This document shows positions 3,857 through 23,571 of a DNA stretch of 64,000 nucleotides, piece by piece. Made by a program: the position numbers and the translations under genes. Location: positions 256,001-320,000 of the forward strand of contig CM000436.1 in assembly GCA_000165345.1 (NCBI GenBank), read 5' to 3'. How positions within the stretch are numbered: position 1 is the first letter of the stretch; every line of letters starts with the position of its first letter. The notes beneath the pieces are model-generated. The model saw nothing but the letters and a program-made list of their open reading frames with translations. It had not been told where the DNA came from and did no database searches.

Positions 3857-4010
3857 TAAAACACGGTACTCGAATTAATTAATGCATTAATTGCAAGGAC
3901 AAAATTTCGATAATAAATAAAATGAAAAGATTGAATAGAAGAGAGATAACTTTTAAGAAAGATTTAAGTTGAATGGATTTCTTAATGAATATTCTCTGTA
4001 AGAAATAGTG

Positions 4011-6050
4011 ATGAATAAATTTAACAGACAAATTCATTTAACTGTTAAAAGTATTTTACATGTACTATTCGTTTTACAAGTGGGAATTACGTGTGTAAAA
4101 TGCATTGTGGAAAAAATTGATTCAAGAACTCCCAGTGGAACAAATGCCTATATTTGGCTAATTAAATCACCAAATATTTTATCTCAGAGTATTAATGAGC
4201 CAACAAGATATTCATATGGATTAATGAAAGGATCAATAATAAGTTTAGATCTAGAATTCGATTTTTGGGAGTATACAGAGGATAAAAATTTAGTAGATTC
4301 CAAAAATGAAACTGAAAAAAAATCATTAAAAAATAATAATAAAGAGCTAATTAGCAAAAGAAATAAAATATATAAAATAAATAAAAGTCAGTTATTAACA
4401 TCAGGAGTTCCTCTAATAAGATTTGAAGATCTTCCAATGAGTTGTGTGTTTTCTCTAAAGTCAGAGGAAGTTAATAGGCTTGTTGGAGATTTAAATATTG
4501 CAAATTCGAATGATGTTTTTATTGGTATTAAGTGGAGAAATCATAGACTAATATTAGTTTTTAAAAGATTAATTAGGCAATTAATATTGTATTGGAAAAG
4601 TATAATAAATTATTTCATGCCAAAAAGTATTTCAAAATCAATAGAAAAAAAGTGCCAGGATTATTTTTCAACAATTTTAAGAAATATCACAAATTCGACA
4701 GAATTAATAAATAGTAATATGATTTCATTAGATTCAGAAAAAAAGAGTTCAAAGAATCATTTGAATAGAGAAACATCTTATCAGGTAACTTCCATTAATA
4801 ATTTTGGTACTAATAAAGTGTTAATAAATGAAAGTAATCAAGCAAGTAAAGAGTTGAAAAATATATTTCTTTTATTATTAAATAGTGAACAACTAGCATC
4901 ATTAAACCATTCTCCAATCCAAGATTTGGCTCTCCTTTCATTTTCGGCAATTTATCCAAGATTTAACATAAGTTCTTATATTAGAAGCGTATTGAGGATT
5001 CCAATTAAAGATCGTACATTAAGACTTGAATATAAAGTTTCAAAAATGGATAGATATACATTATTAATAGTAAATGGAGATCGAATTCCACTTCATATTA
5101 AGGGAAAAGTAGTCGTAAAGAATCCATTTCCATTCAATCATCTCTCATTTGAAAGGAGAATGGATAATTTTGTGGTTGATTTCATGTTGACTTTATATAT
5201 ATCTACTATTTTAGGATATTTAATTTATTCAATATATAGTAACCAAGCTCTAGTACAGACTTATGGAAGTGTGATATATATTAAATTTAATAGTCTTCAA
5301 ATAATTGGTTTAATATTATTACTGATTAAACCAATTTGTTTATATTATGATAAATTAAATATAATTGCATTTACACAATATGGAAATGTAAAATTTTCAT
5401 CTTGGTTTATTCCAAGAATATTAATGAGAAGTTACGAGACTTTATTTATAATGTATATGTTATTAATATCACTTGGCTGGAGGGTGTTAAGAGATAGCTT
5501 ACTCTCTATGGAAGCAAAATTATTAATAGGATTCTTTACACTACTTTTTTATTTGGGAGTTTTTGAAGTAATTTTAGGAATTTTCCAAATTTCAAGGTAT
5601 ATATTCCAAGCTATTGCTTCGTTATGTATAATTATAGCAACAAATATTAATACAACTCTTCTTCAAAACACAATTTCTGATCAGTCAATTTCATCAAGGC
5701 TTGGAATTCTTTACAATATATTGGAAGCTTATTCAAATTTTAAATGGGTATTCGCTATTTTTATTCTTAAACCTTCAATTTTATTTCTATGTAGAGTTTT
5801 CACACTCCAGCCAAATGGATTTGATGATTGGATTTATACTTTTTTTGATTATATGATAGACTACAGTATTTTATTATTTATAATGTTTTTGTTCAGGCCA
5901 TTTAAATCTTTAAAACTTTTTAGTAATGTTCTAGCAAAACATAACAATGAATCGAATAACGGTAATAATCGTAATAATAGCTTTAATATAAATAGTAATA
6001 ACTTCAATAATAGCAATTTGGATGTATCAATGTGGCCAGTTATAATGTAA
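4011..6050 (+). CDS. multi-pass membrane protein with signal peptide and C-terminal 7-TM-like block (possibly GPR107/TMEM87 Lung_7-TM_R-like)
   Basis: ATG at 4011 (the ORF track starts at a GTG at 4008). Hydrophobic N-terminal signal, ~380-aa luminal part, then about seven hydrophobic segments (FVVDFMLTLYISTILGYLIY...LLFIMFLFRP) and an N-rich tail. The family assignment is tentative. Confidence 0.6.
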   Translation: MNKFNRQIHLTVKSILHVLFVLQVGITCVKCIVEKIDSRTPSGTNAYIWLIKSPNILSQSINEPTRYSYGLMKGSIISLDLEFDFWEYTEDKNLVDSKNETEKKSLKNNNKELISKRNKIYKINKSQLLTSGVPLIRFEDLPMSCVFSLKSEEVNRLVGDLNIANSNDVFIGIKWRNHRLILVFKRLIRQLILYWKSIINYFMPKSISKSIEKKCQDYFSTILRNITNSTELINSNMISLDSEKKSSKNHLNRETSYQVTSINNFGTNKVLINESNQASKELKNIFLLLLNSEQLASLNHSPIQDLALLSFSAIYPRFNISSYIRSVLRIPIKDRTLRLEYKVSKMDRYTLLIVNGDRIPLHIKGKVVVKNPFPFNHLSFERRMDNFVVDFMLTLYISTILGYLIYSIYSNQALVQTYGSVIYIKFNSLQIIGLILLLIKPICLYYDKLNIIAFTQYGNVKFSSWFIPRILMRSYETLFIMYMLLISLGWRVLRDSLLSMEAKLLIGFFTLLFYLGVFEVILGIFQISRYIFQAIASLCIIIATNINTTLLQNTISDQSISSRLGILYNILEAYSNFKWVFAIFILKPSILFLCRVFTLQPNGFDDWIYTFFDYMIDYSILLFIMFLFRPFKSLKLFSNVLAKHNNESNNGNNRNNSFNINSNNFNNSNLDVSMWPVIM

Positions 6051-6690
6051 ACTAATTAATAATTTTAATTATTAACTTTGTAACAATATTAATTGTTTAA
6101 GGAATTTTATTTATTTATTTACATATAAATATTTTATTTATTAATTTTTTTTCCACATTAATTAATTACATGAAAATTACGTGTTTAAATGCAAATTTGC
6201 AAATTATTTTTGTTTAATTGCAATACCGTTGCATGCATCCATGTGGATTGAATAGCCGGTATATAATTTTTAGATCAAGAAATACTTTGTAAAGAAGGAA
6301 AAAATGACATAGAGTAGAATCACTTTAAGTATTGAAATGCGTATAGGGTATGGATTTGTTTTGTTTTTTTCTTCAAGTAAAAAAAAAAAAATGGGTTTTT
6401 TAATCCTTAAAAAATTTAATTTTCAACTATAGAAAAATATTAATTATAATTAGAGAAAATCCCCCAACCGCAAATTACAAAAAAAAAAATGTATTGGCGC
6501 CAAAAGCACACAAATACTAATTAGCAACTTTTTGTATAATTTAGACCAAATAAATAATTTGAGGATTGTGCTTAGTTGTTAGATGCCATAATTAGTATAA
6601 CTTTGAGAGCACAGTATACTTCTATGATCTAGCTCTAGCATCAAAAGGTTTCCTTTAAGAGATTTTAGATTGATATGCATTCAGTTCGAG

Positions 6691-9600
6691 ATGTCTTTAA
6701 GAGAACTGGTAGTGGGATCGACTCAGATGCTTGTGGAGAGTGTATTAAGGAGGATAAATGAAAATTTGCTGAATTACTTTATCAATTTGCCAGAAAGTAT
6801 TTGGTTGAGTGGGTTTTTAGACCAAGTAAATTTGAAAGATGTAATGTTAAATACAAGAGCGTTTTCCAATGAATGGTATTCTTTAGATATACCTTTCAGA
6901 CTTAAATATGGACATATAAGAAGAGCAAGTATCCAAGTTTTGTTAGCTCACTCAAAATTGGTGATGGAAGTTGAAGGGGTTGTATTAATTGTAGGCCCAA
7001 ATTTGGCTTATAAATCATACGAGGATGTGATAAGGAATTCAATGGACAATGTATTTGGGTTGGTTGAACTATTTAAGCATATCCAAACAATTAGATACAA
7101 CAATGATAGTTTTGAGGAAGGTTTAGGATCCCAAAAAGGGGAAGTTTCTGAGAATCTACTCAATATTAACTCGTCAAGTAAAGAAGGATTAAACGCACTT
7201 CTTAGATGGCTTTTTAGGTATGTTCCTGATTTGTCCCTTAGTATTAGAAATCTTTACATTCGCTATGAAGATGATGTGTTGGATACTTCTCATCCAATGT
7301 CAGCAGGAATTCATATTAATTCTGTGACTATTAATCCCGCTAGAAACTGTTGGGAATTTCAATGGCCAACTGAAGAGAAAGAACAAGTTGGATTTACTTC
7401 AAAGGGTAGCTCAGACTCTGAGACTGATCCAACCAATTTAGGTAAAACACAGCATCCTCTTTCAATTAATAATTCTAGTGCAGATCCAAGGGGTATTTTC
7501 AGTATTAAAGTTAAAGGTTTAAGCGCCTTTTGGGATGATGAATCTGCTCCATTTATTCCTATTTCATTGCTAGAGCAAACTGAAGCTTCAAATGATAAAT
7601 TTGGAGTATTTTCAGCAGTAACTATTGATGATATCCAGAATCTAGTCAACTCTAATCTACATTATCACACAAGGATTATTTCAAATCTTAATATTTCTGC
7701 TCAGTTTGGGTTTGTAAATCCTTTCATCCACAAGCTTTCTAACGAAAAAAGTCGTCAAAGCAATGATATCAGTGCTAATGGTAGTGATAATAGTAGTAGC
7801 AATAGTATGATTAATGGTAGTAACTTTGGACAAGGCTCTTCCTCTGAACCAATATCTTCTCAAGAATCCTCGTCTTCATCGTCATCTTCTACTTCCAAAA
7901 ATTCAACTGAAAATAATGGTTATATAGCAAAAGATTATTTGAACGATTACTATACTGGTTCTAATATTGCTACATTACTGAATATTAATATACAGAGTGG
8001 ATTTGAAATTAATGTTTATCCACAAATGATTCACGGACTTGTTAGATTCGTAACTCTCTATAATCAGTTTCAATTTTGGACACAAGTAAGGAGGTTTAGA
8101 CCAATTGAAAGGCCAGGAAGTGGTAAAACTCCTGCTGAAGTCAGAGCAATTTGTAGAGATTGGTGGATCTTTAGTCTTAAATATTACAGAAATATCAAAT
8201 ACAAAGACAACAAACAAAATAGTCTTAGAGATGAAATTAACTACAGGGTTGAAAGAAAAAAATATATCAAGATTATCAAAAAATGGAAATGGATCGAATT
8301 TATGATTACTGGCCAAAAACCTATTTTGAACTCTGGGACCATTATACACAGGACTGGTACTAATGAGTATAATGCATGCAAATTTGGCGGGATGAGTGGG
8401 CCCGCCGAATTTGGCAAGATGAATGAATATGCTAAAAGTATTGGAACTTCTATTTCATTTCTGGATTCGAATTTGAATGGTAATCCAAGTTTGTCATCAA
8501 TTCTCGGTCTAAGTTCTCTTATTATTAATCATTTGGGTGTATCTTTTAATTTAAGTAGATATTGGCAATACGATGTTGAAGTCTTACAAAAGGTATCAGA
8601 GAAAAGTGATGATATGAGATGTATATTAACTGTATTGCAACACCATTCTTATTGGGTGGTATCTCAATGGCATATTTTAGCAGAACGTGAGTTTGAAATT
8701 GAGTTTGCTTTATTTCAAAATAGTTCAACTATCCAAAAAAAGCAAAAAGGAGCTATGGATACATTTTCTAATGTAAACCATAATATGGATATCAAAACTA
8801 AGAATATCTTAACTTTACTAGCTTATGGCCTTCATATTCAGACTGATTCATCAGTTTGGGAGTTAATTAGTAAGTTAAGAGATAGTTATATTGATCTTAT
8901 TAGGAGAATAACGCAAGATGACTCTTTGAGTAACCGTATTAAAGAGAGTCTTCAATCTAAATCATCACTTTTGAGTGGAGGATCAGTTTTTGAATTTAAA
9001 CTAACTTCAGGAATTCCATCAACGGTACCGACACAAATATCTAATTTTATACAAGAAAATATTGAAAGACATCCTTATGTTATTTTTGGAACAGGAATCT
9101 TTAAGAAAAGTTTAATTGAAACTGATATTTTATCTGACTTCTTTGGTGTGGGGTTGAATTCTAAGTTACTAATGAAGAGACGAGATTGGCATGCAATCAG
9201 GCTTAGGTTACATTTATGGGGGAGGTTTTATGATGAATATTTTGAAGCCTTTCCATTAGCTATTTCAGAGACTTTAGAGATTAATCAATTAATGAACTTG
9301 AGCTACCACTTAGACTTCCAGCAAATGAACAAATTGTTTAGTATTTCAATGCAAAGTGATTCTTTATGTTTCTCAACTTTAGTTTCTTCTCAGGCTACAT
9401 CTTCAAATCCTATGGAAGATATTGATATGTCAATGGGAGTTACAAATGTGACTATGGCAAGACCAAAGAGTCAACAAATATCGATCATTGAAAGAGATCC
9501 AGAGTTTTCATTATCTTTGTCATCTTCTTCAACTAAACTTGAGAAATCTGAGGAGAATAGGAATGAAATGGATCATATTGGAAAGGATAATCATACAGAT

Positions 9601-13008: not shown

Positions 13009-13230
13009 TAGTTAGGCCATTATATTATTTTCTAGTAATTTTAGCCTTTCCATTAACAATTAATTTATATCTTTTGAATATTTAATCATCTCAATCACTA
13101 CTGAAGCTACTACTCTCAATAATGCATGTGGGGGGCAATTGCATGACTTCCCGCCTAAAAGTTGCATGTGGAGAGAAGAAAAGTGTGATCAATAAATGAG
13201 AGAATAATGAAATAAAATGAATAAATAGAA

Positions 13231-14070
13231 ATGACAACAGTAATTAAGAAGAAGATTAAACTTCCGAGGAATATAACACCTGAATTTGTAAGTTTATTAG
13301 ATTAAGCTTAAAAAAAGAGATTGGTGAGAATTTCTTAATTTAAAAGAATTTCTTTCTTATTAAACAGTAATGATTTCTTAATTCTGGGAGAGTATTGAGA
13401 AATCATTTAATTAATTTTCTCTATTAATTATTGATTAACTTAACTTATTATTTTCTTCAAATAGGCTGTTGAATTGAAGGAATGTTTTGATTGGCAAGAT
13501 AGAAATGGTGATGGATTAGTTTCCAAGGAGTGTTTACTGGTATTATTAAGAGCAACAGGCCAGGTTTGGTCACTTGATGAAATTGACAAAATATGTCATG
13601 GTAAGTTTTTTGTTCTCCATTTGTAAAAAAAAAAAAGAAAAAATTGTTTAATATTGTAATATATTCATCTTTAATATTATAAAATTAAATTAAATAAAAA
13701 AATTCTTATTACTCGCAATGTTAGGACTTGGTTCAAAGGAAGTCGATTTCCAGACATATCTCGATTTAGTATCTCATAAAGTTATGTTAAAGGCTGATAA
13801 GGAAGAGTTAAGAACTGCCTTTAATGTTTTGGATAGATATGGAAATGGTAAAGTTTTGGTTAGTGATTTGAAACATATTTTGTGTAATATTGGAGAGAAA
13901 TTGACTGTAAGTTACATAAATTAACTCTTGTTTTTTAAGCTAAGCTTAAATATTTTGAATTGAATTCTATATTTTAGGAGGATGGTTTCCAAGAACTCTT
14001 GAGTATTTCAGATATTCCTGATGCAAATAGGTTAACATTTTTAACAGAAGAGGAATTTGTGAAAATGTAA
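13231..14070 (+). CDS. ELC1: myosin essential light chain (EF-hand, calmodulin-like; apicomplexan ELC1-like), 4 exons, ~155 aa
   Basis: Exons about 13231..13287, 13465..13600, 13725..13906, 13978..14070. All donors are GTAAGT and the acceptors are ATAG/TTAG/TTTTAG. Phases 0/1/0 join with no stops. Product MTTVIKKKIKLPRNITPEF|AVELKECFDWQDRNGDGLVSKECLLVLLRATGQVWSLDEIDKICHG|LGSKEVDFQTYLDLVSHKVMLKADKEELRTAFNVLDRYGNGKVLVSDLKHILCNIGEKLT|EDGFQELLSISDIPDANRLTFLTEEEFVKM. It aligns with the Toxoplasma MyoA essential light chain ([29 protein letters not shown]...). Only exon 3 is present in the ORF track (13718..13924). Confidence 0.75.
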
Positions 14071-14613
14071 GTTTATAATGGAAGGAATTGGATAAAGAAA
14101 TTGTATATGGGAAAGAAAAAAAATTATGAAAACATAAGAAGTAACTATTTTCACTATAATATTTTTTTTATCCATCCTTTCGTATTCAAAAAAAAACTAT
14201 TATCATTTTAATTATCTAATTTACTATTTTTATTGCTATATAATTTATTTGTGTAGATTTTCAGGAAATGTTAATTAATAGATTTAATTGTCTTTAAGTC
14301 TCGAATTTAAGTCAAAATAGAATTTTTCTTTTTTTGGAGGGAATTTTCTGAATGATATTATTTTGAAATATAATGTTAAATACAGATTGCTTGAATAATT
14401 AGCTGAATAAGATTTTCTATTATTGCTAATAATATTACTGTTACCAATTTGTTAGTATAATTTTCTGACTTCCGGGTTTGTATTGAATAATTTGGCTCCA
14501 AATAAAATCTACAAATTTCAAGCAATACTTACTTGTGATAAGGGTGGTATTAAATTTAGTACCAAAATATATAGGGGAGAAAAAAAAAGGACGGAAGAAT
14601 ATTATACATTATA

Positions 14614-17600
14614 ATGCAAAGTGATTTTCAGTATAAAGATCTTTTGACAGTTTTTAACATTCCAATTTCACTTTGGGTACAAAATGGGACTCATTTATTT
14701 CATAAGAATACTTCAACTTTGGTTGATAAAAATGGTAAAAGACTTTGTATTAAGGTAAGTTAAAAGGTGAAATTAATAAAATTAAATATTATATTATTAA
14801 TAAAATAAATTGATATATAGTGTATTATTGATATGTTTAAAAATAACCAAAAATCAAGTACATATTTATCACAGATTTGTGAAGATTTGATGTTGGTAAG
14901 TTAAAATAGATTAATAAAATTCATTTTCATTAAAAAAAAAAAAAAAAAAATTCAGATGATAAAATGTGAGAGAGGTAAAGGAGTTGTAAGATTTATTATA
15001 AGTGAGATTTTGGGAAATGAAAGTAATTTCATTATTGAAGAAATTAATAAAGTTGACGTAAGTTTTTGAAGTATATTTAAAAAATTATTAATGAAATAAT
15101 AAAAATAATATAATTTAAATGATAAATTTAATAATTAGGATGAAATGTTACTTAATAATCTTATAAATTTGAAGTTAACATTATTAAACAAACATTTTTC
15201 AATATCAGAAAATAAACAAAGACAAAAATTAAATGAAAATATATTAAATATAATAATTAAAAGTGTAAGTAAATTGTAATAAATATTTTATTATAAATAT
15301 TGATTTAATATAATTAATTTAACAAATAATTTTAGATGAATAATTTGAATATAAGAATGAGATCAATGGCAAAATTAATATATATACTATTTGATGATAG
15401 ACTTTCAATATACTCGAATAGTTTAATAGATAGAATAGTGGAAGATACAAAAAATCTATCAAGCTTTGGAAAGATGATTTTGAGAATGGACATAGAGAAT
15501 ATTCAATATTTAATTCCTATAATAGTTAAATTAATAGAATGCAATCCTGAGAAAGTAATAAATAATTTATTGATTGATAAAGGACTACATTTATCAAGAT
15601 TATTATGTGAAGTTACGGATAAGAAGATTTATTTTGAATATATTTTAGAGTTTTATTTACATATATTAAATAACTATCCAAATCAATTTGGAAATTTATT
15701 AATAGATAACAGTAATAGATTGGATATAAAAAGTAATAATAGTAAAGAAGAGTTATCTTTGAACATTTTAGTCGGAATAGAAAAGATGGCAATAATTCTA
15801 GCAAGATCAAGTAAATACTCTAAAAGCAATAATTATCATTCATCCAGAAACTTGGATATTGATAAATTTCAAGATACAGAATTTTCAATGAGTGACTTGG
15901 AATACATGCAGCAGGGAGGTTCTATTCCCAAGATGGGTAATTTTTTAATTAATAATTCTATGAATGAAAATAATATATTAGAGGAGATGGGAGAGCATGG
16001 TGAAAGGAGTTTGAGGATGAATATAAGCAATAGTAGTATTGGAAGTAGCATTATGAACATGAATAATAATCACATAAGTTATGGAAGAAAGGATTTTATG
16101 GAAATAAATGAATTGGAAGAAAAGAAAGTTGTTGATGGAATTAATATGTTTGGATTATTGAGAAATAGGGAAGAAGATGATAATAGATTAATGAAGAAAT
16201 TGATTCAATTTTTTAAAGGTTTTATGCTATATAAAAATAAAATGGAATTATTTTGGAATTCTGATAAAGAAAAGATAGATTTAGAAGATGATGAAGTAGA
16301 TTCAAATATAGATAATAACTGCAAAAAAAACAGATGGATTATGGAAGGAGAGTGTTTTGAAGTTGTTCATAAAATAATTGAATGGATAATAGAATTACTA
16401 AGAAATAGTATAGAAGTTGAATTAGATAACTTAGCTTTAGATTGTATTTTGCAAGTATTCACACAAGAAAAGTGCTGTAATTATGAGGAAGAGAAATCAG
16501 AAGCTGATGAAGAGCTTTCAGACCTTAATATAAATCAAAAAGATAATGATAATAATAAAAACAATTTATTGGAAAAAAATTCCGCAAATATAGAATTAAT
16601 AAATGAAGATAAATCGGAAGATTTTATTTTTAATATGAAACCTTTAAATATGAAATCCAAAAGAGTAACTTTCAAAAGAATTGAAGAAATTCCACCAAAA
16701 AAAAAATTAATAACTTTTAATGATGTGGATAAAAATAAATTACGTGTAAATGCATGCAAGCAAGGCGGGTCAAAATGTGACAATAATACCGGTATAGAAC
16801 AAAATAAATCATGTGGAAAATTATGTTTTCACCAGATTTTTGTAATAAAACATGGCCAGTATTTGTTGGATATTTTTTTAGAACTTTTTGATGATTATTT
16901 AAGAAAATTTGGATTAAATTTTATAAGAAGAAAGAGTGGAAATGCAAAGAGTTTATCATTTTATGACCAAAGTTACAAATATATAATCGATAATGAGCAG
17001 CAGATTGAGGAGGTATTATATAAAATAATTCAGGGAATAAATAATATTTCAGATGGGGTTGCTATTCAATCATGTCCTAGACAGATATTTGCAATAAGTT
17101 GGTTTATGGAATTTATTTTATACGGTTTTTCGAATGAGGAATCTGTATTAAAAAGTAAGCCACCAGTTCCTTTGTATGGTTCATCAAGTATGGATTTAGT
17201 AATGAAAGCTGCTAATATGGATCAACCATTGGAGCATGCACTATTAAGTATTTCTACAAAATTTAGTGAGGAAAGTAATCAAAATAATGAAGAAGTGAAT
17301 CAAATTCAAAAAGGATTAATTAATCAGATTGATACTATAAATCAGGTTCAAGTAGAAGTTGTTAACAAATTAATCTCTCTAACAGAAAGGATGTGTAAAT
17401 GTTTGTATAGCAAGGGTAAAAGAAACTCTAAATTAGAAGGTGAACATTTTAATGGAAGCTTTTATCAAGTGGATATCAAAAAGTTATGGAAACTTAATGG
17501 TACAGTTTACAGTAGGGATCTGCTACTAGAATATTTTTCAAATATCCTCCAAATTACAGAAAAGTTATTCGGTTTTAAAGGTGTTAAAGTTATTCAATTC

Positions 17601-20600
17601 TTAGATTCTACTGATAAGTTATTTGAATTTTATACCCGAGAATTAAAAAATAAGGAACGGAATATAGTTTGTTTGTCCCAACTATACTTAATTCAGCATA
17701 TTTTTGATACAAACTTAACAAGTGAATACGAGGTAAAAGATTCTTTAACTAAAAATAAAGATCCTCAAGCAAATTTAGTATTTAATATTTTTTCTATAGT
17801 ACTTCAAATTGATAAGAGAATTCAAGATAATCTTGAAGATTTGGATGAAGTAAATGACCAAATTCTGCAAAAGGCAGATAGCAAAATTAAGCTATTAATT
17901 AATAATAAGGTTGGAGCTCAGCTAATATTCCAATGGATTAAAAATCCTAATATTGGCGATCAAGAAATTTATGGAATTAAAACTAACATTTTAATAAGAT
18001 GGATAATTCACATTTCTAAACAATTATTACATCCAATTATGAATGAAAATGAGATTAGTAGCAGATTAAAGTATTTAACCAAAGAAAGGATTAAAGCTTC
18101 CTTGCTACTAGACGACTCTGCTTCAAACGATACAATTTCTATTGTAATTTCTCTTTTAACATTTTGTTATGGCTATTTTCCAGATCAAGTTATTCTATTC
18201 ATTTTAAAAAATATTAATCGAGAAGAAATTCAGGATCTTGAATATCCAGGAATATGTAATATTTCTGAAGATATTGCTCAAAAGATTAATAATTATGGAA
18301 AATCATCTGCTTTTGGAAATCTTTCCAATACAAGAAATATCCCAACTAGAGTACTTCTTTATTATTCATCCATACTTTTGGATAATACCAGTAGAAATGG
18401 TAAAAAGAATATTGATTTATTTCAAGATTATTCCTTCCAAAAAGACAAAATTGTTGCTAAGATTATTTCCATATTAGTTAATTCAAATTTAAGACGTAGA
18501 GAATGGCTACTTTGGCATTCAAAAAATTTTGACAAAATTGAACTTTTTTCAAATTCATTACATAATCTTATTCAATCAAGAGGAGAAATAGGAAACTATC
18601 AAGAACAGAAAAAAATTGAAGAGCAAATCTTTAAATGGATCTATGATCGAAATATCGATTATTCAAGATATCAGGTCAGTTCTAGACCTTTTTCAATATC
18701 TTCTTTTTACTTTGGATTGGTTGATTTCTCAATTTCCCCTATTTTAGAGAAATCTATATTGCAAAATGTATCATTTATTAAGTTTCAGATCAAACAATTA
18801 CTAAATCTTAGCTCTATAAAACCCAACACTTGTACTGAATATGAACTTGAGGATTTCATTCAAAAGCTAAGTATGAACTTGAATTTGTTCATCTTTTCAA
18901 TTCAAAGTTATATCGAAAGAAACGATCAACTTAATTTTGCTGATATACTTACTATTGAAGAAGTTACTTTACCTTTAAAACTATTTTTAAATATTAATAG
19001 TGATGAATTTGATTTCAGATTTAAGGCAATTATTGGCCATTTAACTTTAAAATTCATTTCAGTTTTCTTTAAGCCAAGCTGGAGAGAGTCAAACTTTCAA
19101 GAATTAAATAAATCGAATCCGTCCTCACAAGTATTTGGAATTAAAACTTTTACAAGTCTTGATAACTTTGGAAAAAGTTCAAACAGAAAAACTTCAAGTT
19201 TATTATTTATTCTAGTAAATCTGATGGATGAATTAACAAAGTGGTAAGTTTTTTAAATATACTAATTTAATCAAATAGACGAATATATCTTTATATTTGT
19301 ATATACTTTTTTTAATTATTTTTTACCTTCAGGATGAATGAAATTTTCAATATGAACAACTTTGACAAGTTTTATGTATCTGCCTATTTAGAAACGTTTT
19401 CAAGTTTGGTTTTGGAATTAGGAATTAGAGATAACATCCTTTCTCAAAGTATGGATATCGGATCAGGAGGTGAAAAAGGAGAAATATTTAAACTCAAGAT
19501 AAGGCAATCACTAATCAATTTAGTTCAAAGTGACTCTACTGTTTCTTTAATAGAGAAGATATTAAACTATATCATTATTTGCAGAAGAAAAGGTAACAAT
19601 TTGGATGCGGACAAATCAAGTTGTTTAATGGGTATCTCCATATTACTACTTTCCATGTTATCAAGTAAAATCAAAATATTCAGAACTAATGGAAGATTAG
19701 AGAGTCTTATTGATTCTATTTTAGCTCATCCAACATTGTTATTTCATGCTGAAAAAAGCTCAAAATGTGGATTAAATTCTCGCTTTTCGTCTGATGAATA
19801 TGATAATTCGCTTATAGATAACAATACAACGAGTTTCAATCTATGTAACTATTGTCTTAATTTTGGCTTCAATCATAACATAGAAGATATTAAATTAATA
19901 ACCAATGTTTCTATTATTGTGGCATTGCTACGTCTAAATCATGTAAATAGTAGAGCAATATCAAAAAGTAACTTAATTAAAGATATTTTTCTACAAAGCA
20001 TTTCAGGGATTTTAAATACAAATAATAAAGCATCATCAGTAAGTCATGGATATATGGGAATTATATTATCGTCAATATATTTATCATATGACCAAATTCA
20101 GTCTTTGAGCCTTGTACATAATTTGTATATTCAAAAATTCCTTGTAAAGGAGTTTGTTTGTGATGTTTTAAACTTTGACAAGAATCCAGTTGAAAATTTA
20201 AATCTTTCTCCATGTATGATATTTCATTATTCTGTATTATTTTCATATTTGGTTTTTATATTGAAGACTACTCCTTGGTGGCTTAATATTTCTGATTTGA
20301 TCAATCTAACATTCATAAATAAACTTGGAAAGATTTATAAATCATTACAAACTTCCGCAATTATTTATAATGATGAGAATGACAATATTGGAGAATATTT
20401 AATTAGCTTGACAGAGATTCTTTTAAAAATTGTACAAGAAACAATAATGGCTCGCTCTAACTCATCTTCTAGTTATATTCAAGGTAAGTTAATTTCTGAA
20501 TAATTGAAATATATATAGAGCGTGTTTTAAAATATTTGATTAACTTTTTCTTTCTGATTAAGATGAAAAAAACAATGCAGAAAATAACGGAGTAATTATT

Positions 20601-20876
20601 AAATTAATACAAGAAATCCTTAAAAACCAAGAAAATGAAAATATTCAAGACTATAATATAACATTAGTAAGAGAACATGCAAATTCAAGAAATGGAAATA
20701 TTCTTAAAAATACCTCAAATTGTAGAAATAATAGAGGATCTGGATGCTTTATCTGTGGTTTTAAATACAAATTCAAATACTTTGAAAGTAAAGAGAGTTT
20801 TATAAGTAACTTTTTTATTTCTCAAGTATTAAAGTTTTCAACTATGGAGATATTTAAAAGAATTATTGAAAATTAG
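14614..20876 (+). CDS. very large alpha-helical protein of unknown function, 7 exons, ~1940 aa (joins ORF-track ORFs 15336..19247 and 19334..20503 plus 5 further exons)
   Basis: Exons 14614..14754, 14821..14895, 14956..15057, 15139..15264, 15336..19243, 19333..20483, 20563..20876. Every donor is GTAAGT. Acceptors are TATAG, TTCAG, AATTAG, TTTAG, CTTCAG, TTAAG. Exons 1-4 are all phase 0 and open. Exon 5 ends ...ACA AAG TG|gtaagt and exon 6 starts cag|G ATG, which restores TGG and continues in frame. Exon 6 ends CAA G|gtaagt and exon 7 (G+AT GAA AAA...) is a 104-codon open frame to TAG at 20874-20876. No conserved domain recognised. Confidence 0.65.
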
Positions 20877-21137
20877 TATCAAATTCAAATATTTACTCAA
20901 AATTTTGAATTTTTTATTCTTAATATATATTGCTAAAATTTCCAACCCACTCATAATATTTGCAAGTGGACAAATGCATGCAATGCAAATGCATGCATGT
21001 GCATGTATTTGCATTATGACATCCAAGCCTGACAAAAAGAAAATGTATATTATACATAGGAGGAAAAAAAATCAAGTTTTAACAATATAAACAAACATAT
21101 TAAAGATAGACAGAATTAATTATTCAAAAGGTTAAAA

Positions 21138-23571
21138 ATGGAATCAAGAATATTAAAGTTTGAGAGTAAGTTTCAAATAATAAAAAGAGGAGATTATAGT
21201 AGAAAATAAAATTTCTGCTTATTGGAAATATATCATTGAAGGAAAAAAATTTTAGAATAAAGTGATTAACTATTTTTCTGTTTCTTTTTAATAAATTTAG
21301 CTAGTGCAGGTAGATTGTGGATTGCAGGAACATATGGAATAAACAAAAAACCTTTTAACAAGAAGATAATTCAGGAAGTAGTCGTAAAGTCAGAAGTGGC
21401 AGATTTTGTTACTTTGGCGAATAATATGAGTTATTCTTTAAGAGTTTCAGCTACACTGTTGAGAGGATTGATGCTCATTTATGATAAGCAATGGATATAT
21501 TTGGGTAAGTTTGGCCTTTAATTCCAATTTGGGGATGATTCTTATAAGAAAGTTTAATACTAAATCGTTATTTTATCTCATTCAGAATCAGATTTGGATA
21601 ATTTATATTTGAGGGTAAGTCTAAAAATAATTACAAATTTTTTTTTGATCATCATTATTAACAAATCATTACTAAAAATAGTTTAGGGAAGGAAGAAATG
21701 AGACAGAAAATAAAAATAATTGTAACACATTAGTTAGGAGGAATAGAGGAGAAAAGAAGAATTCTTTATTGACTGAGTTAATTTCAATAAATTCATCACT
21801 TAGTTTGAATGGCGATAATTTGAGTAATAGCAGTAATAATGATCGAAATGGTGAATTGGTTTTGTCATTGGATGCTGAGAATTTTGTTTTGGACTTAGCA
21901 AACAAAAGTATTGATGAATTGAATTTTGAAAATATTCTTTTCAAAGGTAATGGAAATAGTTCAAATATTGGAAGGATTGAGGATATTACTCTTCCTGAAA
22001 TTAATAGAAATAAATCCAACTTGTCAAGAGATTTTGGAGTTGAGCAGGATTTCGTAAGTCTAGAGGAGAGTAATAATGAAGAAAATGAAGATGAAAGTGG
22101 AAATAGTGGAGGAAAAAATAGCATAAAAAATTCATCAGATAGAAGAGGAGAAAGCCAGATAGTACTATGGTCTTCAATAAATAATGAGGATTTTATGTTT
22201 CAGGGAGAAGAAAGTGAAGAATTACTTGAACAATTAGAAAGAAAAAAGTTAAATGCTGAAAGAAGCAAATTATCGGATCGAGATAAAGAAAATCAGTTTA
22301 TGGAGGAGACTACTGAGATAGTTTGTGAAGCTCAAAATAGAGGAGAAAATAGAAAAAGATCTAGATGTTTAAGTCATCTTGATGTTGATTTAAAGTTTAA
22401 AGGAATTAGCTCTATTAATAAGAATCAGCTTGAAATGTTGGTATTTAATGATGAAATAATTGCTGGTATGGATGAAAGATTAAGAGGTTGGGACTCATAT
22501 AAGTGGTGGCAAACAGAAACCCAAAAAAATGAGAAAAGTCAATTTCTAATAAAGTTCCAAAGCCTTGCAATACGTAGTATGAAAAAATCCAAGAGAATCT
22601 CAGTATCAAACCAAAATGGTAGTAATTTAGACATGTATGAAGCAATAGAAAAACATAGAGGTGAATATGATACAGGAGTTGAGTATAGTAACGTTGATTT
22701 GGGATTTGACCATTTTAATTTGGATAATGGTTTTGTTGGATCTCCAAGTAATCGTTTTAGAAATGGCCGTGATACTATTGAAAGCTCAGTTAATTATTAT
22801 GGAGATGGTGCAAATTCTTCAGGTGGAGCAAGATTACAAAGTGGAAGAGAGTCTATGATTTTCTCAGATAGTAGACGAGGTTCCAATGATGGAGTTAGGT
22901 TATCAACCATGTTAGAAACTGGGTCAGTATTATCATACAATAGTTCTCCTTTCCAGTTTGAAAAAAACTTAATGGGTATCCGAAGAGATTCGTCTAATTC
23001 TGAATTACAAAGAATTGTGAGATCTGGAAGGCTTAGTGGATCAATAGTAGGTAATAGCTACGATAAACAATACAGAACAAATTCTATTGCAACCAGTATT
23101 AGTGATATATTTTGTATGGAGGAAATTAAATCATCTAATTGGAGCAAAAGTGGAATCACTACAAGTAGTGGAACTTATAATTTGAAGACTTATACTGTTC
23201 AGAAATTCATTGCAACTAGAATGAAAGAAATTAGAGAAATTAGAAAGATTAATGAAGAAAATGGCTACTTAATGGACAATAATACTTCAAACAAAGAAAA
23301 TATAGGTAGCCATAATAGAGAGGAAGAAAATTCTGGAACTTTCAATAAGAAAAAAGACAATAGAAATGTTGAATCTGATGATAATGAAGAAGAAATGTCA
23401 ATTTACTTAAGTGAATTATTACCAGAAAAAACTGCTACAAAATGTACTGCTGCAGTTTTTTTCTATCATCTATTAGTTCTTGCAACATATAATGAAATCA
23501 AACTCACTCAAAGTACACCTGGGGGTAATATTAAGATTACAAAAACTAGCTCATTTAATGAAGAAAGTTAA
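21138..23571 (+). CDS. RAD21: Rad21/Rec8-like cohesin kleisin subunit, 4 exons, ~717 aa
   Basis: Exons 21138..21165 (MESRILKFE), 21301..21504, 21586..21614, 21682..23571. Donors GTAAGT x3. Phases 1/1/0 join cleanly. The N-terminus ...SAGRLWIAGTYGINKKPFNKKIIQEVVVKSEVADFVTLANNMSYSLRVSATLLRGLMLIYDKQWIYL matches the Rad21_Rec8_N domain (LAKIWLAAHWEKKLTKAQ...[24 protein letters not shown]). The C-terminus KCTAAVFFYHLLVLATYNEIKLTQSTPGGNIKI matches the Rad21/Rec8 C-terminal winged helix ([27 protein letters not shown]). The ORF track shows only fragments, with TTG 'starts' at 21315 and 21769. Confidence 0.75.

Follow-up and report, generated by a model that had tools for sequence, protein, structure and literature searches.

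Adjacent open reading frames on Cryptosporidium parvum chromosome 8 probably belong to one spliced seven-exon gene

Two long open reading frames (ORFs) lie next to each other on the forward strand of C. parvum chromosome 8, and both match the Iowa II 2004 annotation exactly, where they stand as separate 'hypothetical proteins'. Are they two genes or pieces of one? They fall within the window analyzed here, a 64,000-nucleotide stretch (GenBank assembly GCA_000165345.1, contig CM000436.1, positions 256,001 to 320,000), and the C. parvum coordinates below are positions in that window. It could be assigned to chromosome 8 of C. parvum because an exact look-up identified the two ORFs as EAK89323.1 and EAK89324.1; the initial annotation, made from the letters of the DNA without database searches, had rightly called the genome Cryptosporidium-like. 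The ORFs are:

15336-19247, plus strand: 1303-aa ORF, identical to EAK89323.1/XP_627007.1
19334-20503, plus strand: 389-aa ORF, identical to EAK89324.1/XP_627008.1

Our answer, drawn from the DNA and its comparison among species, is that positions 14614-20876 of the plus strand very probably hold one spliced seven-exon gene encoding a 1938-aa protein.

Exon chain and splice signals

The exon chain was assembled from window positions 14000-21500 and translated, with the ORFs taken from a program-made list. Its elements, in order, are:

14614-14754, plus strand: exon 1, 141 nt, 47 codons, begins at ATG, ends in phase 0
14755-14820, plus strand: intron 1, 66 nt, GTAAGT…TAG, 11% GC
14821-14895, plus strand: exon 2, 75 nt, 25 codons
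14896-14955, plus strand: intron 2, 60 nt, GTAAGT…CAG, run of ~19 A ahead of the acceptor
14956-15057, plus strand: exon 3, 102 nt, 34 codons
15058-15138, plus strand: intron 3, 81 nt, GTAAGT…TAG
15139-15264, plus strand: exon 4, 126 nt, 42 codons
15265-15335, plus strand: intron 4, 71 nt, GTAAGT…TAG
15336-19243, plus strand: exon 5, 3908 nt, the 1303-aa ORF minus its false stop, ends in phase 2 (TG)
19244-19332, plus strand: intron 5, 89 nt, GTAAGT…CAG
19333-20483, plus strand: exon 6, 1151 nt, one base and then the 389-aa ORF, ends in phase 1
20484-20562, plus strand: intron 6, 79 nt, GTAAGT…AAG
20563-20876, plus strand: exon 7, 314 nt, 104 codons and TAG (20874-20876), frame resumes after ttaag

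Joined, the seven exons came to 5817 nt, a length divisible by three, and translated into 1938 aa with the sole stop codon at the end. The initial annotation had given this chain as a single frame of ~1940 aa, and every one of its coordinates proved correct. It was also right about how the two ORFs end. The TAA of the 1303-aa ORF is part of the intron 5 donor (AAG TG/GTAAGT), and the acceptor (cag/G) rebuilds the split TGG codon. The 389-aa ORF runs through its own donor (CAA G/GTAAGT) to a TAA ~20 nt inside intron 6, and the proposed 104-codon frame beyond the ttaag acceptor is open to its TAG. All six donors read GTAAGT, as had been claimed, and all six acceptors AG; the introns measured 60-89 nt with 8-20% GC. 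The claim of a T-rich tract ahead of each acceptor held for introns 5 and 6 and weakly for intron 4, but not for intron 2 with its run of A, nor for introns 1 and 3, which are merely AT-rich. Among C. parvum introns 84% begin with GTAAGT, and the median and mean lengths are 61 and 82 nt (PMC2483917); published norms taken together give a mean of 82-99 nt and 22% GC (PMC2483917, PMC4637869). The donor, length and composition of all six introns fit these norms. In its boundaries, its intron length and composition, its single uninterrupted frame and the coding-like evolution of its exons, the locus has the features of a gene with GT-AG introns. The peptides that span the junctions of the 1938-aa product are:

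exons 2/3: SSTYLSQICEDLMLMIK
exons 3/4: VDDEMLLNNLINLK
exons 4/5: SMNNLNIR
exons 5/6: WMNEIFNMNNFDK
exons 6/7: SNSSSSYIQDEK

Could unrelated open stretches and random GTAAGT hexamers agree in frame by chance? The genome is AT-rich and ~24 GTAAGT are expected by chance in the window, where 46 were counted against 24 ± 5 in shuffles. On the plus strand of the 6.3-kb gene span there were 7, against ~1.2 expected from shuffles. The seventh of these lies at 20039-20044 (+) within exon 6; it was weighed as another possible donor and rejected, as the conserved peptide SSVSHGYMG runs across it. With the base composition of the window, a random codon is a stop with a probability of 0.089, and chance would leave all five short exons (47, 25, 34, 42 and 104 codons) open with a joint probability of ~7e-11; the initial annotation had likewise considered such agreement of frames unlikely. 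The chain is moreover open in six species, with substitutions biased toward third codon positions, and these comparative data, detailed below, rule out the chance explanation.

As we picture it, a single pre-mRNA would be transcribed from the locus, and six short U2-type introns with the donor typical of the genus would be excised to leave the 5817-nt coding sequence. We infer that the predicted introns are indeed removed from C. parvum mRNA. Three features account for the split in the 2004 annotation: the stop that the donors of introns 5 and 6 bring, either in frame or some codons inside the intron; the accidental presence of an ATG at or beside the start of exons 5 and 6; and the shortness of exons 1-4, which kept them from showing as ORFs. 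RNA-seq re-annotation of C. parvum found introns in 10.8% of genes (~89% have none), and the genes that contain them have 2-10 exons, 2.6 on average (PMC4637869). Seven exons thus lie in the upper tail of the known range but inside it, and the remark in the initial annotation that six introns would be unusual was a fair one. On that re-annotation fourteen formerly separate coding regions became exons of neighboring genes (PMC4637869), and the mis-splitting at the locus studied here is a known kind of annotation error. It is an ordinary gene fragmented by annotation, and putting it together is a correction rather than new biology or a new mechanism.

Conservation and selection across Cryptosporidium

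The orthologous loci of seven species were fetched and protein models or exon peptides were mapped onto their DNA, with C. parvum as the eighth species. Introns 1-5 occupied the same codon positions in 8/8 species, including C. muris of the gastric lineage. The cluster of four introns lies in the first 650 nt of the gene and has been conserved since the divergence of gastric and intestinal Cryptosporidium; introns gathered toward the 5' end, as here, are what intron-poor genomes usually show. Exons 2, 3 and 4 measured 75/102/126 nt in the seven intestinal-clade species and 69/105/126 nt in C. muris. All 47 residues of exon 1 aligned in the orthologues from C. hominis, C. meleagridis, C. ubiquitum and C. 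canis, and its start is identical in the models CPATCC_0001030, CHM_8g990 and cubi_03324; the exon 3 protein sequence is 100% identical to that of C. hominis. Intron lengths varied, from 53 to 73 nt for intron 1 and from 58 to 213 nt for intron 3. In C. parvum introns 1-6 measured 66/60/81/71/89/79 nt, compared to 61/51/79/71/88/79 nt in C. hominis. These interspecies differences in intron length are not multiples of three, and exons 1-4 are without insertions or deletions. The complete seven-exon chain formed one open frame in C. hominis (1937 aa), C. meleagridis (1940 aa), C. ubiquitum (1947 aa), C. canis (1895 aa) and C. muris (1685 aa), as well as in C. parvum.

Intron 6 was present in C. 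parvum, C. hominis, C. meleagridis, C. ubiquitum, C. canis and C. muris. It was absent in C. xiaoi and C. ryanae, where a divergent extra segment is read straight through and no GTRAGT was found near the intron 6 junction. This suggests loss or exonization of the intron in the C. xiaoi/C. ryanae lineage. In C. canis the intron is present as GTAAGT…CAG (99 nt), despite a deposited model that reads through it in frame and so adds ~33 hydrophobic residues (fetched locus 7964-8064); exons 1-4 of that species are annotated as a separate 143-aa gene.

Substitutions in exons 1-4 fell at codon positions 1/2/3 in numbers of 1/3/15 against C. meleagridis and 9/10/43 against C. ubiquitum. The ratio of nonsynonymous to synonymous substitution rates (dN/dS) was estimated by the Nei-Gojobori method separately for exons 1-4, 5, 6 and 7, and yielded 0.09/0.18/0.27/0.25 against C. 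meleagridis and 0.08/0.17/0.21/0.16 against C. ubiquitum. Over all comparisons the values ranged from 0.076 to 0.09 for exons 1-4, from 0.13 to 0.25 for exon 7, and from 0.08 to 0.27 for all exon groups. Every exon group is under purifying selection.

These comparisons bear on whether the locus instead consists of two or three independent genes, either the 1303-aa and 389-aa ORFs or a 109-aa and a 1760-aa product, with the small upstream exons belonging to a separate short gene or being non-coding. The records EAK89323.1 and EAK89324.1, and likewise CPATCC_0001030 and CPATCC_0001040, were deposited in that way, and exons 5 and 6 do open at or beside an ATG. Those ATGs, however, are missing in orthologues: the first codon of exon 5 is ATT in C. 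ubiquitum and C. canis and encodes Val in C. xiaoi, and the ATG of the 389-aa ORF (WMNE in C. parvum) is replaced in C. canis (WVND), C. xiaoi (WINS) and C. muris (WLSK). The split Trp codon TG/G at junction 5 is invariant in all species, including C. muris, and so is the Asp after junction 6, the first residue of exon 7. The C-terminus …KRIIEN* is common to C. parvum, C. hominis, C. meleagridis and C. ubiquitum. Exon 4 occurs in none of the retrieved C. parvum protein records, yet it is 126 nt long in 8/8 species, and exons 1-4 have a dN/dS of ~0.08. Nor is there an intergenic spacer between the supposed genes. The gaps are 60-89 nt long and bounded by GTAAGT…AG, whereas the true flanking intergenic regions span ~260-540 nt. 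Full-length, colinear single models exist in four other species (CmeUKMEL1_09540 of C. meleagridis, cubi_03324 of C. ubiquitum, and models of 1937 aa in C. xiaoi and 1949 aa in C. ryanae). In the orthologous group of cubi_03324, CmeUKMEL1_09540 and CMU_024900, all members matched with E = 0 and full-length models gave 91-100% coverage. The full-length models of C. meleagridis UKMEL1 (1940 aa) and C. ubiquitum (1947 aa) carry the matching exon chain, in agreement with the single gene of the initial annotation, and we consider separate genes extremely improbable.

Deposited models, possible isoforms and neighboring genes

Every C. parvum and C. hominis record retrieved for the locus is a fragment of the seven-exon gene. 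In the IOWA-ATCC annotation, CPATCC_0001030 (109 aa) comprises exons 1-3, removes introns 1 and 2 in the way proposed here and runs into intron 3 (…VD/VSF*); CPATCC_0001040 (1760 aa, 'partial') comprises exons 5-7 and likewise removes introns 5 and 6 at the proposed sites. The BGF model cpbgf_8001020 (1744 aa) starts at a Met inside exon 5 and reaches the true stop, again with introns 5 and 6 removed. CPHLJ_8g990 (1374 aa) and the C. hominis model CHM_8g990 (1375 aa) join exons 1, 2 and 5 and end at the false TAA; they are without exons 3 and 4 (14956-15264), a skip that preserves the frame. Introns 1, 2, 5 and 6 are therefore already used as proposed among the deposited C. parvum models, and introns 3 and 4 and exon 4 in none. 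The use of those four introns in the evidence-based ATCC and BGF models lends indirect support to their splicing in mRNA. The exact 1938-aa product was not found in a collection of ~15 billion proteins. A full-text search for the candidate tags cgd8_990, cgd8_1000, cgd8_1010 and cgd8_1020 returned no paper besides the dN/dS supplementary table of PMC4637869, where the four stand as separate genes. The seven-exon structure has thus been deposited for orthologues and in part for C. parvum, and the present model, which is that of the initial annotation, is more complete than any retrieved C. parvum record because those are all fragments.

A few points weigh against a single full-length gene product. 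CHM_8g990 and CPHLJ_8g990 omit exons 3 and 4, which is due either to faulty annotation or to a genuine isoform. The evidence-based IOWA-ATCC annotation retains two models, the 109-aa one that reads into intron 3 and the partial 1760-aa one. This state might come from observed retention of intron 3 or from missing coverage; expression data are lacking for some genes in that re-annotation (10.1101/2021.01.29.428682).

We therefore weighed a single gene with regulated intron retention or exon skipping, whose truncated products (~109 aa, ~1451 aa or an isoform lacking exons 3 and 4) would be made in some life-cycle stages, alongside or instead of the full-length form. Alternative splicing has been reported in C. 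parvum (10.1101/2021.01.29.428682). Any retained intron would stop translation within 1-7 codons, but an early stop past the 5' splice site is expected of any AT-rich intron, and regulation is not needed to account for it. Exons 3 and 4 are both in phase 0, so that a skip keeps the frame, and two deposited models have the skipped form, just as the 109-aa ATCC model reads into intron 3. Against this, all exons, including 3, 4, 6 and 7, are conserved genus-wide under purifying selection, and for this reason the full-length form appears to be the selected product. Regulated truncation at this locus seems very unlikely to us, and we retain one gene with one full-length protein.

The gene is flanked on the plus strand by:

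13232-14069, plus strand: upstream neighbor, four-exon EF-hand gene; ATG 13232; GTAAGT donors 13288, 13601, 13907; stop ~14067-14069
from 21139, plus strand: downstream neighbor, Rad21/Rec8-like cohesin gene; ATG 21139; first GTAAGT donor 21166; acceptor near 21310

The order EF-hand gene, studied gene, Rad21/Rec8-like gene was kept in the window and in 7/7 fetched loci. The GTAAGT at 14067 overlaps the stop codon of the EF-hand gene and is not a donor; orthologues of that gene are annotated at 154-166 aa with weak EF-hand_7 matches. Beyond the first donor of the Rad21/Rec8-like gene, further GTAAGT hexamers occur at 21505, 21615 and 22054; in OLQ18329.1 (2515 aa), a C. hominis record, this gene is fused to the seven-exon gene. 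The short intergenic regions hold clusters of TGCATGCA-type motifs at 20960-21015, upstream of the Rad21 gene, and at 13120-13170, upstream of the EF-hand gene, the latter accompanied by a TTCCCGCC (E2F-like) element. The clusters look like apicomplexan promoter motifs. A scan of the 5' intergenic region for bacterial promoters and terminators gave nothing above shuffles and is irrelevant to a eukaryote.

The predicted protein and its counterparts

The initial annotation had named no domain in the product, and the searches agreed with it. A Pfam scan gave no family at E ≤ 1 for the C. parvum protein and only sub-threshold noise for five orthologues, with no HEAT/ARM repeat profile recognized in any of the six. 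A profile built from seven orthologues had no match at E ≤ 10 among PDB sequences. Homologues of the assembled 1938-aa product were found in Cryptosporidium only. An exhaustive HMMER profile search with residues 251-1450 against 1.84 billion representative proteins likewise returned only Cryptosporidium, adding C. muris CMU_024900. Nothing outside the genus appeared either when 5.8 billion proteins were searched with a word-seeded profile of the full-length alignment, in which C. muris was included. By these sequence searches the protein is restricted to the genus.

AlphaFold2 run on shallow alignments gave all-helical, unreliable models, with a mean pLDDT of 48.3 for residues 251-1450 and 47.7 for residues 1451-1938. 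Residues ~250-650, which are Asn- and acid-rich and poorly conserved, were essentially unmodelled. Fold matches of these low-confidence models were generic helical repeats with TM-scores ≤0.3, mostly ≤0.2. Helical-repeat (HEAT/ARM-like) scaffold proteins, with importin-13, TEX10, the Not1 C-terminal domain, the HUWE1 N-terminal solenoid and Nup192/205 as examples, count among the closest known systems. For the product we predict an all-alpha fold, possibly a solenoid, and nothing more. From these low-confidence models and generic fold matches we tentatively suggest a non-enzymatic helical scaffold that might act by protein-protein contacts, which we regard as possible rather than probable. Conserved motifs in the C-terminal part are HP..L.H, C..C..G.N, N.Y.QK and SPWW. 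Two hydrophobic stretches, 1546-1564 and 1742-1760, were borderline in a hydropathy scan (Kyte-Doolittle ~1.6-1.7) and were not called as transmembrane helices. It is unlikely that the protein is an orthologue of some conserved helical scaffold of eukaryotes (e.g. a large nucleoporin, a factor in ribosome biogenesis or a trafficking adaptor) that has diverged too far in Cryptosporidium for sequence methods to recognize it, or that the 5' cluster of four introns serves to switch the full-length protein on and off through stage-specific intron retention or skipping of exons 3 and 4.

The value of the corrected model is practical. C. parvum is a major diarrheal pathogen, and its gene models steer proteomics databases, the design of knockouts, and analyses of orthology and selection. 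Under the corrected model, two or three 'hypothetical proteins' would become a single conserved protein specific to the genus, and a genome in which ~89% of genes are intronless would gain one of its more intron-rich genes.

The closest known counterpart is CmeUKMEL1_09540 (POM83867.1) of C. meleagridis UKMEL1, a syntenic orthologue of 1940 aa with 91% identity that is colinear over its full length; its protein is also colinear with the exon chain mapped in another C. meleagridis assembly. The C. ubiquitum model cubi_03324 (1947 aa) shows 74-75% identity at 100% coverage and has seven exons and six GTAAGT introns at matching positions, and differs in that its introns measure 54-133 nt. Both are likewise labelled just hypothetical or uncharacterized. 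C. muris RN66 bears the same annotation split. Its model CMU_024900 (1268 aa) ends at TGG/TAA in a GTAAGT donor (fetched locus 4001-9580), and a 123-nt intron would join it to the adjacent 408-aa model, which holds a 77-nt intron 6, in one 1685-aa frame. The joined C. muris gene differs from that of C. parvum in its shorter protein and ~24-29% identity, and has introns 1-6 at homologous positions.

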